A stretch of DNA of 64,000 bases. Origin: Escherichia coli (GTDB lineage: Bacteria; Pseudomonadota; Gammaproteobacteria; Enterobacterales; Enterobacteriaceae). A program made the position numbers and the translations under genes. The notes below the pieces were generated by a model, which did not search any database, was not told the origin of the DNA, and was given only the letters and a program-made list of their open reading frames with translations. Shown piece after piece: positions 45,519 through 50,997 of this stretch (within the stretch, counting starts at the first letter, position 1; the number at the start of each line of letters is the position of its first letter). The DNA is taken from NCBI RefSeq assembly GCF_046105845.1, contig NZ_CP151004.1; one strand, written 5' to 3'.

Positions 45519-46742
45519 TTATGGGATTATATTCTGGTAATGATTTGATAAGCGAATTCTTTTGCCAGTTGGTATTTCTATTTCCACCCCATAATTTATA
45601 GTTTTTTCATCAGGTAGCGATCTCTTTAAATAAGGTGCGCATGACATTTTTTTTGGGTTAAGCGTCTCGCGTTGAAATACTTCGAATTGATATTCAGACA
45701 TTTCTGCCCATGTTTGAATTTTATTGTATCGGGAGAGTGTCGTAAAGGCTTTAACTTGCTTATAACATTGTTTTTTGAATTCTTGCTGATATTTTAATAT
45801 GTCATTGTATGAAATATTGGTTATCCTGGCCTCTAAGAATTTAATTATTGTCGAAGCAATTTCCGCTTTTGCTCGTAAAAAGTTGTCATTAATGGTTAAT
45901 AATGTTGAAAATAAACCTTCGATTTGTTTGTCAAGATATTGTTCGTCTTTATATAATTTGGGGGTAGGGTGTTCTTTATGTGAAAAAATAGTGTCACCTA
46001 AATTTGCGTCAGTGAAATTTATATTAAGTAGATCTTCGAAATAAAACCTTGACAAGGTTAGAACGAACCCGGACAGGTTCTGTCCTGTCATATTGAAATC
46101 AATAAAGTTGGTTCCGGCAAAGACTTTCATCCTGTTTTTATTTTCACTGTGCTCAATATATAACTTCGTCATTTTTTGATACAGGTTTTGAATATCTTTT
46201 ATATTAGTCGGTAAGTCAGCTCGTTGTTCAGCAATAAAATTAGTATCTGAAAACGTGGTTTGGACACTGAATGTTATGGGTATTCCCTCTTCTACGCTAA
46301 TTTTAGTTATGATTGCCTTGTCGGGTTTAGGATTAGCGACAACAATGATTCGACATTCAGCACTTTTGTTCTTTTCGTATCTAATGTTATTAATTTGATT
46401 AAGTAGTCCCTGTGCCTGCCGCGTAAGTGGTGTCGAACTTATCGATTCAATGTTAGTAATAAGACTTACAAGTTGAGCCACAACTTTGGAGTAGTCTGCA
46501 TTTGTATATGTGGTGTTCGTGCGGCACGCATAAATTTGTGGGAGGTGTTTCCGCGCTAAATCATATTGTTCAGGGTTGTATCCTTCTCCAGAGAATGGGG
46601 AATTAATGGGTTGTTGTTCTTCCTGATTATCACAAGGCCACATCGGTGTGTCTGGTGTTTTAACATTGTCGGTATCTGTTGTGCGGTTATAAATATCGCC
46701 GTGATATGTATTTATCATACTTGGGGTAAAGTCAATTGACAT
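45519..46742 (-). CDS. yhiS: YhiS-type hypothetical protein, intact 407 aa; polar N-terminus and a pentapeptide-repeat-like tract
   Basis: ATG at 46742 with SD aagga 6 nt upstream; very AT-rich; no signal peptide or TM segment; central tract [45 protein letters not shown]. Confidence 0.8.
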
Positions 46743-47322
46743 AACATTCCTTATTGTTCATCTATTTCGCTAAATTTTTGTAAATCGGAGAATTAGAGCA
46801 GGAATGGATTTTCTTCTACGCGGAAATAAACACAATGCGCCATATCTTCCTGATATAATTACCTTTAACTTCCCTTTCATTTCCACCCGGTAATATTTGT
46901 GTATAAAAAAAGGGCAGTGATAGTATCGTAAAGGAAAACGTTAACAACTATCAAAAAGCGCTCATTTTAAAAAGTTATGATGTTCTCCGATAGTGTGTGA
47001 AGTGATATTTTTGTGATGTTTTAGATGTGTAATAATGAACCAGGTTAAAGTGTATTTAAAAATGTGTTGTATTGGCGACTGAAATCTGCCCTTTAAAAGG
47101 GGGGATAGCACTGAGACAAAGAGGCATTGCTTCTCCGATAAAATGTCAGAGAAGCATGATTGCGTGGTGATTGTCGATTGATGACTTACTGACGGATCCG
47201 TCATCATTCTCAAAGCATTAGTTAAGTTATTTGTGATTTTTAAGGATTATCCTATCTATGATTTTCTACTCAGAAGGATAAGGCACTCACAATGCTCCTT
47301 ATAGTTTACTGCTGGCATCTAT

Positions 47323-48324
47323 TTAAAATAGCATTTGAGTCAAATAGCCCATCAAGATAGCCATACCTAAGATAACCGTCAGGAATGCAGCTATCATCGG
47401 CATTCTGAACATTGATTTAAGTAATATCACTTCCGTCAGGCTTGCTCCGGCACTGCCGATGATTAATGCCATTAATGCTCCCAGCCCCATTCCTTTTGTC
47501 ATCAGAACAGATGCCAGAGGGATAACCGCCTCTGCCCGGATATACAGCGGAATTCCGACAACGGCGCTCAATGGGATGGCGAAGGGATTATCTGCCCCTG
47601 CATGAGCGGCAATCCACTCTGAGGGAATAAAGCCATAAATAAAAGAGCCTATTAATACCCCTAACAAAAGATATGGCAGTACATCTTTAAACTGTTGCAA
47701 CGCATCTTTGGTGGCTAGTTTTATGGGATTAATACTTACCACAGCTTTGGTACTGCAACAGTTTACTACAGGTTTCTCAATGGCTTTAGCCGCTGGACTA
47801 CAGCAACTCACTTTTATTGGCGTATATGTCGTCCCCGGCGAAGTTTTGGCTGGAGCACAACAATTTGCTGATGAGCTTTTACTGGCAATGATATGACGTT
47901 CAAATCCCAGGGAATCCAGGATAATACTGGCAAGTACGGAGACGCCGGCGGCGATAATCGCGTACAACAAGGTAACTTTCCAGCCAAAGGTCACCCACAT
48001 TAACCCGACGATAATGGGATTAAGTAATGGGGAAACAAATAAAAAAGTGAGGGTCGGACCAAACCCGGCTTTCGCTGATAACAATCCACGTAACATGGGG
48101 ATTGTCGAGCAACTACAGAACGGGGTAACGGCTCCCAACAGAGCAGCCAGGAGATAACCTCTCCCTTTTCTGGCCCCCATCATCTGCTGGATTTTATGGT
48201 CTGGCACCTTTTGTCTTATCAGGCTGACACCGGCACTAATCACTATAAACAGCAAAGAAAGCTCGACGGCGAGAAACACAAACATCTCTGCGGCATCTTG
48301 CAGCATCGCAAGCCAACTACTCAT
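47323..48324 (-). CDS. Cys-rich polytopic permease (DUF318 / ArsP-like, TPFCSCS motif)
   Basis: Start taken at ATG 48324 (MSSWLAMLQ...), which has SD gagg; an alternative ATG lies at 48336. At least 8 hydrophobic segments, motif AVTPFCSCSTIPML, central loop with three CC pairs. Confidence 0.8.
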   Translation of the reverse strand: MSSWLAMLQDAAEMFVFLAVELSLLFIVISAGVSLIRQKVPDHKIQQMMGARKGRGYLLAALLGAVTPFCSCSTIPMLRGLLSAKAGFGPTLTFLFVSPLLNPIIVGLMWVTFGWKVTLLYAIIAAGVSVLASIILDSLGFERHIIASKSSSANCCAPAKTSPGTTYTPIKVSCCSPAAKAIEKPVVNCCSTKAVVSINPIKLATKDALQQFKDVLPYLLLGVLIGSFIYGFIPSEWIAAHAGADNPFAIPLSAVVGIPLYIRAEAVIPLASVLMTKGMGLGALMALIIGSAGASLTEVILLKSMFRMPMIAAFLTVILGMAILMGYLTQMLF

Positions 48325-48349
48325 ACGTAACCTCATTGAATAAATCTAT

Positions 48350-48369
48350 ATTTCCAGAATAATCGAAAT
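48350..48369. promoter_or_regulatory. 20-bp dyad box 1 (ATTTC-N10-GAAAT) in the divergent permease/regulator promoter region
   Basis: atttccagaataatcgaaat; second near-identical copy 37 bp away. Confidence 0.4.
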
Positions 48370-48386
48370 GAAATTCAGATCAAGAT

Positions 48387-48406
48387 ATTTCTGGTATTAT
48401 CGAAAT
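48387..48406. promoter_or_regulatory. 20-bp dyad box 2 (ATTTC-N10-GAAAT), candidate operator of the adjacent ArsR-like regulator
   Basis: atttctggtattatcgaaat; about 25 bp upstream of the regulator ATG. Confidence 0.4.
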
Positions 48407-48431
48407 ATCAACCAGACAAAGGGGGTGTCAT

Positions 48432-48728
48432 ATGCAGTTGGAAGAAGTTGCTAAAGCGCTGAAAGAGCTAGGTCACCCGACCCGTTTGTTCATATTCAAA
48501 CACCTGGTCAAAGCGGGGGAACAAGGTTTGCCGGTCGGTGAGTTGCAAAAGCAGCTTGGGATACCCGGCTCTACACTCAGTCACCATATTTCAGCACTGG
48601 TATCGGTAGGGCTGGTCAAACAAAACCGTGAGAGTCGGACGCTGATGTGTGTTTCGCAATACGCAATGCTGGAAGCGATAATTGAATTCTTACGCGAGGA
48701 GTGCTGCGTAAATAGCAAAATTGCCTGA
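48432..48728 (+). CDS. ArsR/SmtB-family winged-helix regulator, atypical (no CVC site; C-terminal CC pair)
   Basis: 98-aa ORF with ATG and strong SD (aaaggggg); HTH region LGHPTRLFIFKHLV...LGIPGSTLSHHISALVSVGLV; C-terminal EECCVN. Confidence 0.8.
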   Translation: MQLEEVAKALKELGHPTRLFIFKHLVKAGEQGLPVGELQKQLGIPGSTLSHHISALVSVGLVKQNRESRTLMCVSQYAMLEAIIEFLREECCVNSKIA

Positions 48729-48777
48729 TGCGCTACGCGCTACAGATTTCATGCCATATATTGAATTTGCACGGTTT

Positions 48778-48816
48778 TGTAGGTCGGATAAGACGCGTTA
48801 GCGTCGCATCCGACAT
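48778..48816. repeat. REP (repetitive extragenic palindrome) element
   Basis: tgtaggtcggataagacgcgttagcgtcgcatccgacat resembles canonical E. coli REP units (gccggataaggcg...cgcatccggc); lies between convergent genes. Confidence 0.6.
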
Positions 48817-48861
48817 AAACGAAGCGCACTTTACCAACTATCGGCAGTGGATATCGCCGCT

Positions 48862-49287
48862 TTATTTCAGGCGTTTACCCGCTTCATCAACCACTTTCTC
48901 GCCATCTTCCTTGGTGAACGCGCCTTGTTGCGCATTTGGCAGAATTTCCAGCACCACTTCTGAAGGGCGGCACAGGCGAGTTCCCAGCGGCGTCACCACA
49001 ATCGGGCGATTAATCAGAATCGGGTGCTGAAGCATAAAGTCGATTAACTGATGGTCAGTAAATTTATCTTCTGCAAGGCCCAGTTCCTCATACGGCTCGA
49101 CGTTTTTACGCAGCAGCGCGCGTACGGAAATCCCCATATCGGCAATGAGTTTGACCAGCTCATCGCGCGTTGGCGGTGTTTCCAGATAATAGATAATGGT
49201 CGGTTCTGTACCGCTGTTGCGGATCATCTCCAGCGTGTTACGCGACGTGCCGCAGGCCGGGTTGTGATAAATGGTAATGTTGCTCAT
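48862..49287 (-). CDS. arsC: Arsenate reductase (glutaredoxin-coupled) ArsC
   Basis: 141-aa ORF, N-terminal MSNITIYHNPACGTSRNTLEMI with catalytic Cys. Confidence 0.95.
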   Translation of the reverse strand: MSNITIYHNPACGTSRNTLEMIRNSGTEPTIIYYLETPPTRDELVKLIADMGISVRALLRKNVEPYEELGLAEDKFTDHQLIDFMLQHPILINRPIVVTPLGTRLCRPSEVVLEILPNAQQGAFTKEDGEKVVDEAGKRLK

Positions 49288-50643: not shown

Positions 50644-50997
50644 TTAACTACAAATGTTCTTACTGTCTTCGGAACAATTTTGTCGAGCCAGGTTGCGGAC
50701 AATCACCTGAACCTTTTCCTGTTCACATCGCCAGGCCTCATCAATAATTTTCGCCGCCCATGCTGGAATATGCGGTGATAAGCGGTAATGAACCCACTTA
50801 CCTTGCTTGCGATCCAGCAATAGCCCGCTTTCACGAAGAAGCGCCAGGTGGCGGGATATCTTGGGCTGCGACTGATCGAGGGCAGTACAGAGATCGCAGA
50901 CACATAACTCTCCCAGCTCGCTTAGCAGTAAAACGATGCCCAGACGGGTCTCATCAGCAAGAATTTTGAACAGTTGGATGGGTAACAGAAATGACAT
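50644..50997 (-). CDS. arsR: Arsenical resistance operon repressor ArsR (canonical, CVC metal site)
   Basis: 117-aa ORF with ELCVCDLC As(III)-binding motif and ArsR HTH. Confidence 0.95.
   Translation of the reverse strand: MSFLLPIQLFKILADETRLGIVLLLSELGELCVCDLCTALDQSQPKISRHLALLRESGLLLDRKQGKWVHYRLSPHIPAWAAKIIDEAWRCEQEKVQVIVRNLARQNCSEDSKNICS

Follow-up and report, generated by a model that had tools for sequence, protein, structure and literature searches.

The ArsR proteins of the E. coli chromosome and of R773 are autoregulated repressors that act at an imperfect dyad upstream of arsRBC. These type 1 proteins carry a CXCXXC motif (Cys32, Cys34 and Cys37) in helix α3, and SmtB binds zinc through His, Asp and Glu ligands of helix α5. 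The operator pattern of the ArsR/SmtB family is the imperfect 12-2-12 repeat, each bound by one dimer, and the smt divergent operator-promoter contains two such repeats (PMC8790569, PMC6555750). The As(III) ligands of AfArsR, a type 2 protein from Acidithiobacillus ferrooxidans, are Cys95, Cys96 and Cys102 (PMC11868830). SpArsR of Shewanella putrefaciens 200 is an MAs(III)-selective protein, answering to MAs(III) but not As(III), with a Cys pair and without a Cys102 equivalent (PMC11868830, PMC13236881).

We analysed a 64-kb stretch of E. coli DNA (hereafter the window) that contains a divergent gene pair labelled by NCBI merely as 'helix-turn-helix transcriptional regulator / permease'. The permease gene (47323–48324, minus strand) encodes a 333-aa protein of the ArsP_1 family (PF03773), and the regulator gene (48432–48728, plus strand) encodes a 98-aa protein assigned to the ArsR/SmtB family by Pfam and NCBIfam. 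The RefSeq start of the permease, at 48324, is preceded by GAGGT, and the first ATG is at 48336; the RefSeq start leaves an intergenic region of 107 bp (48325–48431). Two dyads occupy this region between repressor and target, a dual-operator layout of the smt type: in smtA–smtB of Synechococcus PCC 7942, a divergent region of about 100 bp likewise holds two imperfect 12-2-12 repeats (PMC8790569, PMC6555750). The half-sites differ, the classical sequence being TAxAxTCAAATA-xx-TATTTGAxTxTA (PMC6555750) and the one found here GATATTTCgata-xx-tatcGAAATATC. The target differs as well, a metallothionein in smt and an efflux permease here.

The original prediction had placed two 20-bp copies of a box with ATTTC/GAAAT ends between the divergent start codons. 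Both 20-mers are present at the positions it gave, and they lie between the start codons whether the permease begins at 48324 or at 48336. Box 1, the permease-proximal operator candidate (48350–48369, unstranded, centre 48359.5), reads ATTTCCAGAATAATCGAAAT and has arms of just 5 bp. Box 2, the regulator-proximal candidate (48384–48409, unstranded, centre 48396.5), reads GATATTTC-TGGTATTATC-GAAATATC, and its core is the 20-mer ATTTCTGGTATTATCGAAAT (48387–48406). The local order is ctat ATTTCCAGAATAATCGAAAT gaaattcagatcaagat ATTTCTGGTATTATCGAAAT atcaacc, with 16/20 identity between the two 20-mers and a start-to-start distance of 37 bp. The predicted ends are real, but taken alone they describe the element too narrowly: the fuller dyad is of the 12-2-12 or 8-N10-8 form, aTTTCGATa-N2-tATCGAAAt. 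Box 2 is a perfect 8-N10-8 dyad (GATATTTC-N10-GAAATATC, arms 100% complementary) that can also be read as an imperfect 12-2-12 repeat, GATATTTCTGGT-AT-TATCGAAATATC, in which 8 of the 12 arm positions match. In E. coli, the symmetry does not extend to the inner 10 bp of either box. Both boxes also fall within a 37-nt head-to-tail direct repeat (48348–48384 and 48385–48421, 70% identity), which suggests an origin by tandem duplication; the likeness beyond the boxes is weak (8/15) and is not kept in other genera.

Motif scans covered the 64-kb window and about 0.5 Mb of flanks of orthologous loci. On both strands of the window, ATTTC-N10-GAAAT has only two matches, boxes 1 and 2, whereas the shuffled window averaged 0.11 matches and none of 100 shuffles gave at least two. 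The boxes are also the sole matches in the window to the degenerate consensus at up to three mismatches. A weight matrix of 28 columns, built from orthologous sites and used with a cut-off of 12 bits, scored box 2 at 35.0 bits, box 1 at 32.9 bits and the runner-up in the window at 2.9 bits. With no site beyond the two boxes, a wider regulon within the window was rejected. The motif is absent upstream of arsRBC, whose canonical type 1 arsR (50644–50997) belongs to the ArsR family, as does the regulator.

We then compared 80 species loci with an orthologous regulator. TTTC-N10-GAAA has 96 matches in 15.8 kb of regulator-upstream DNA (200 nt each), distributed over 64 of the 80 loci, against 12 matches in 460 kb elsewhere in these loci, an upstream enrichment of about 230-fold; composition-matched shuffles of the upstream regions gave a mean of 0.39. 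In the 80 loci, every matrix match of at least 12 bits precedes either the regulator gene or an ArsP_1 permease gene, and the motif accompanies the regulator gene, and separately the permease gene, in about 70 of the 80 species genomes, across several orders. An adjacent, divergent permease (about 50 loci) goes with two sites, or in most Vibrio with three, at −38, −125 and −175. Where it lies 1–2 kb off or downstream (loci L049, L078, L058, L054 and L063), the permease has sites of its own, and in L049, L058 and L078 the regulator too retains a single upstream site. At loci with no permease nearby (many Photobacterium, Serratia, and some Vibrio, such as L071, L073 and L082), a single site at about −41 of the regulator usually persists. 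In most of 72 loci, the regulator-proximal site is centred at about −28 to −36 relative to the ATG. An autoregulated repressor with the permease as its second target would be expected to show this distribution of sites.

The boxes also stand out in an alignment of 14 intergenic regions (alignment A2) that was made independently of the motif search and draws on E. coli, Citrobacter, Buttiauxella, Limnobaculum, seven Aeromonas and a Desulfobulbus genome. All 14 genomes have the two-dyad divergent layout; the invariant columns are the two boxes, with box 2 the best-conserved block, and the 17-bp spacer and the flanks vary. Pooling of 79 distinct sites gave the consensus aTTTC[G/T][A/G]n[T/A]A-[T/A][T/A]ATCGAAAt, in which ATCGAAA, forming the right half, and the outer TTTC hardly vary. 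Vibrio sites come near a perfect palindrome, TTTCGATA-AA-TATCGAAA. Some E. coli, such as E69 (L011, CP089930.1, 2896–3000), have a second, diverged type of the module, with a regulator of 86% and a permease of 75% identity and with the boxes TTTCTAAAATTATCGAAA and TTTCTGGTATCATCGAAA spaced 39 bp apart.

The centre of box 1 is 35.5 nt from the permease ATG at 48324, and that of box 2 is equally far from the regulator ATG at 48432, so that the region is pseudo-symmetric about 48378. A putative extended −10 element of the regulator, TGgTATTAT (48392–48400, plus strand), can be read inside box 2; its TG is invariant in A2, and every one of the 32 distinct regulator-proximal sites has T at position 8, A at position 9 and T at position 13. 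The predicted permease promoter (48356–48383, minus strand) would consist of a −35 TTGATC (48383–48378), a 16-nt spacer and a −10 TATTCT (48361–48356) inside box 1. A CAA immediately to the left of box 2, read as TTG on the minus strand, is conserved in alignment A2, with no symmetric counterpart on the other side. These promoter assignments are weak consensus matches. A σ70 consensus scan proposed TTGAAT-16-AATAAT on the plus strand plus two minus-strand pairs, and it did not list TTGATC/TATTCT. We set the plus-strand proposal aside because its −35 falls in sequence that is not conserved in A2, and preferred the promoters backed by conservation, namely the TGn extended −10 in box 2 and the TTGAYC −35 with TATTCT in box 1. 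We infer that the promoters stand back to back and that one operator covers the −10 of each. The equal distances from box centres to facing starts, together with the overlapping −10-like hexamers, make an own operator for each promoter probable, and the data fit this arrangement better than a cooperative pair.

The 37-bp distance had also been taken as meaningful in itself, as about 3.5 helical turns. This part of the original prediction fell away: site-to-site spacings across taxa are 37, 39, 49–52, 61–66 and 84–89 bp, and helical phasing, which is therefore probably irrelevant, was rejected as a conserved functional feature and carries no weight as an argument. The distances between adjacent sites (loci L003–L082) are discrete, falling at approximate multiples of 12.5 bp with no continuum.

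By curated sequence thresholds, the regulator is a member of the ArsR/SmtB winged-helix family, with matches to Pfam HTH_20 (1.5e-14, 54.2 bits, cut-off 27) and HTH_5 (5.3e-07, 29.9 bits, cut-off 22) and to NCBIfam NF033788 HTH_metalloreg (61.9 bits, cut-off 55). PADLOC Csa3 matches were discounted as reflecting the generic winged-helix fold only. Close homologues, at 62–88% identity, are found in Aeromonas, Citrobacter, Serratia, Yersinia, Photobacterium, Vibrio, Shewanella, Endozoicomonas and Desulfovibrio/Desulfobulbus. In an alignment of homologues (alignment A1), each position of the recognition helix STLSHHISAL is invariant or nearly so, and Cys73, Glu90, Cys91 and Cys92 are invariant. 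Relatives with solved structures include AfArsR, YgaV, BigR, NolR, NmtR and CzrA; AfArsR (6J05) ranks first with an E value of 4.7e-10, followed by BigR and YgaV.

The cysteines of the regulator are placed differently from those of type 1 proteins: it reads GLPVGELQ, with no Cys, where the arsR product of the window reads ELCVCDLC. In place of the α5 His/Asp/Glu ligands of SmtB it has Cys73 and Cys91-Cys92. It resembles AfArsR in its C-terminal vicinal Cys pair and its association with ars genes, and Cys91-Cys92 align with Cys95-Cys96 of AfArsR (EECC versus ENCC). The full type 2 site of three cysteines (Cys95-Cys96-Cys102) is nevertheless not found in the regulator. The protein ends six residues after the Cys pair (C terminus CCVNSKIA, with no Cys after Cys91-Cys92), and a counterpart of Cys102 is therefore absent; Cys73 is invariant instead. 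This residue, which AfArsR lacks, may replace Cys102, possibly from the other subunit: located just before α5, it could approach the Cys pair of the partner in an antiparallel α5 dimer. SpArsR likewise has a C-terminal Cys pair, equivalent to Cys95-Cys96 of AfArsR, and no Cys102 equivalent. Its pair is at residues 101-102, so SpArsR is longer and probably a different protein, and Cys73, a third invariant Cys in the regulator, could permit three-coordinate As(III) binding here. The ArsR2 of P. mercurii hgcAB was also considered as a relevant system and set aside, as it is a different, four-Cys regulator.

The permease matches Pfam ArsP_1 at 5.8e-53 (180.4 bits, cut-off 32.3) and carries an FCSCS motif and a loop with three CC pairs. 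By both threshold and CSC motif it is a member of the ArsP/PF03773 family (TCDB Organo-Arsenical Exporter family). CSC is a signature common to ArsP/PF03773 members and a general soft-metal-binding motif (10.1101/2022.07.06.499078).

On this evidence, the boxes are almost certainly bound by the adjacent regulator, and we consider it quite probable that they are its operators, that they cover both promoters, and that the repressor is released by a thiol-reactive, most likely arsenical, inducer. The asymmetric inner 10 bp and the short arms of box 1 count against this reading. One regulator homodimer would bind each imperfect 12-2-12 dyad. Binding at box 2, over the extended −10 of the regulator, would give autorepression, and binding at box 1, over the minus-strand −10 of the divergent permease, would repress the permease. 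A thiol-reactive inducer would be bound at Cys91-Cys92, at the end of helix α5, probably together with Cys73; it would most likely be a trivalent arsenical, As(III) and/or methylarsenite. Inducer binding would release the repressor and switch on the ArsP-type efflux permease along with the regulator. The central claim of the original prediction, that the boxes are operators through which the adjacent dimeric winged-helix repressor controls both genes, finds strong, if indirect, support in the family thresholds, in the co-travel of the motif with the two genes and in the conserved islands of A2.

The pair adjoins arsC, arsB and arsR in the window and in several other Enterobacterales. On plasmids, a 95%-identical copy of the regulator heads an arsH–σ70-family–arsD cluster, with the permease divergent. 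This cluster and the alignment of the Cys pair make trivalent arsenicals likely inducers. The absence of a counterpart to Cys102 makes an arsenical signal less certain. The boxes might instead be true operators of a regulator that senses something other than an arsenical (Cu, Zn, Cd, Hg, a thiol-reactive electrophile or a persulfide), with the enteric ars context secondary, a reading we regard as improbable. The nearest curated models of the permease, SO_0444 Cu/Zn efflux and SaoE, point in that direction, but its NCBIfam scores are far below their cut-offs (109 versus 300 bits and 86.5 versus 325 bits, respectively), and it falls in neither subfamily. A non-arsenical signal would also suit the general metal-binding character of the CSC signature, the three CC pairs in the permease loop and the rank of BigR and YgaV, both sensors of sulfur species, as the next closest solved relatives of the regulator; the Cys pair, however, is aligned with the arsenite ligands of AfArsR. 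Most marine loci are without ars genes, and none were found within 3 kb at the Aeromonas, Vibrio and Photobacterium loci, whereas arsH directly follows the regulator in three genera, including Serratia and Citrobacter, and arsH, sigma and arsD genes accompany it on plasmids.

We regard it as very unlikely that the boxes are bound by an unlinked factor, such as a global regulator of AT-rich sites like Fur, with the ArsR-like protein acting elsewhere. The box centre is AT-rich, with ATTATC/GATAAT-like hexamers, and the chu genes for iron uptake are within a few kb, but the invariant positions are TTTC/GAAA and TCGAAA rather than the AT-rich centre, and the site is kept at about −41 of the regulator even where both the permease and the common neighbours are missing. 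The motif also stays with the regulator gene when the surrounding DNA is unrelated, for instance on plasmids or beside a Tn3-family transposase, which makes an unlinked factor unlikely. Least credible is that the dyads are 5′-leader RNA hairpins or a functionless relic of the 37-bp tandem duplication: the boxes do lie in a 37-nt tandem direct repeat and box 2 could fold into an 8-bp hairpin of −5.7 kcal/mol, but box 1 reaches just −0.7 kcal/mol, the z-score of the intergenic region as a whole is −0.3, Rfam gives no match, and arm positions 2–4 and 15–17 are invariant with one-sided, uncompensated changes at position 1/18, so RNA structure was rejected, and a neutral relic is excluded because the boxes are conserved across orders with variable spacing and a copy number of 1–3.

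The operators proposed for the adjacent repressor belong to a pair with a variable genomic setting. The chromosomal order is slp, a 407-aa ORF, the permease, the divergent regulator, arsC, arsB, arsR, dinQ and gor. The intergenic region was matched in 2385/5426 complete E. coli genomes (about 44%), with 3041/5426 lacking a match, and the pair is therefore an accessory module. The 407-aa ORF in the slp–permease gap (45519–46742, minus strand) is annotated 'hypothetical protein', is frameshifted in the closest strain, 19KM1831, and has no match in Pfam, NCBIfam or PADLOC. E. coli strains also differ by an 11-bp indel within the query 47200–48900 (1701 versus 1690 bp matched), which the annotation coordinates of two strains place in the regulator–arsC spacer (48729–48861); the window strain has the minority long form and is 99.4% identical to 19KM1831 and GF60.

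The pair was found on 648 PLSDB plasmids, in some of which the regulator heads the arsH–σ70-family–arsD cluster, and the plasmid copies keep both boxes at the 37-bp spacing. Mobile copies of the pair with its boxes include those on the E. coli plasmid pYLMB20b (L083, 5860–7422) and on a Citrobacter arsenatis plasmid (L086, 6999–10364). The neighbours of the pair include a Tn3-family transposase and a resolvase on a plasmid with phage P1-type genes (C1 repressor and antirepressor). At L041 (3281–3895) and 24 other Vibrio/Psychromonas loci, a gene for an ECF-type sigma factor (Sigma70_r2 / r4_2) directly follows the regulator. This sigma factor has a cysteine-rich C terminus, CCNLS...C...CGKC, and its gene overlaps the 3′ end of the regulator in the inspected loci L041, L075 and L082, an overlap that hints at co-transcription and a regulatory cascade.

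A more far-reaching interpretation is possible, though we hold it only tentatively and doubt it as a whole. The regulator would represent an uncharacterised ArsR subfamily with the boxes as its operator, and its intersubunit Cys73′/Cys91-Cys92 site would be a fifth placement of an arsenical site on the ArsR scaffold. The pair would form a self-contained, highly mobile organoarsenical-efflux module (about 44% of complete E. coli genomes, more than 600 plasmids, Tn3-family transposase neighbours), which in Vibrio would head a small cascade through co-transcription of a Cys-rich ECF sigma factor.

From the sequence evidence, the boxes appear to be an operator motif specific to this subfamily, for which we found no earlier description, in a module that is widespread, mobile and probably arsenical-responsive. 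Our literature search returned no paper on WP_001175589, on the TPFCSCS motif or on regulation of the plasmid ars cluster. The architecture is an ordinary, textbook ArsR/SmtB repressor-operator arrangement and leaves the understanding of ArsR-family regulation unchanged; its main use is in annotation and biosensor design. The pair is present in close to half of the complete E. coli genomes and on hundreds of resistance plasmids; confirmation of these sites would assign it a defined operator, along with a minimal regulon predicted to comprise autoregulation and the ArsP-type permease. Biosensors of trivalent arsenicals, possibly including organoarsenicals, could then draw on a ready-made promoter/operator/repressor cassette, and the convergent evolution of ArsR sensor sites would gain a further variant in where the cysteines are placed.
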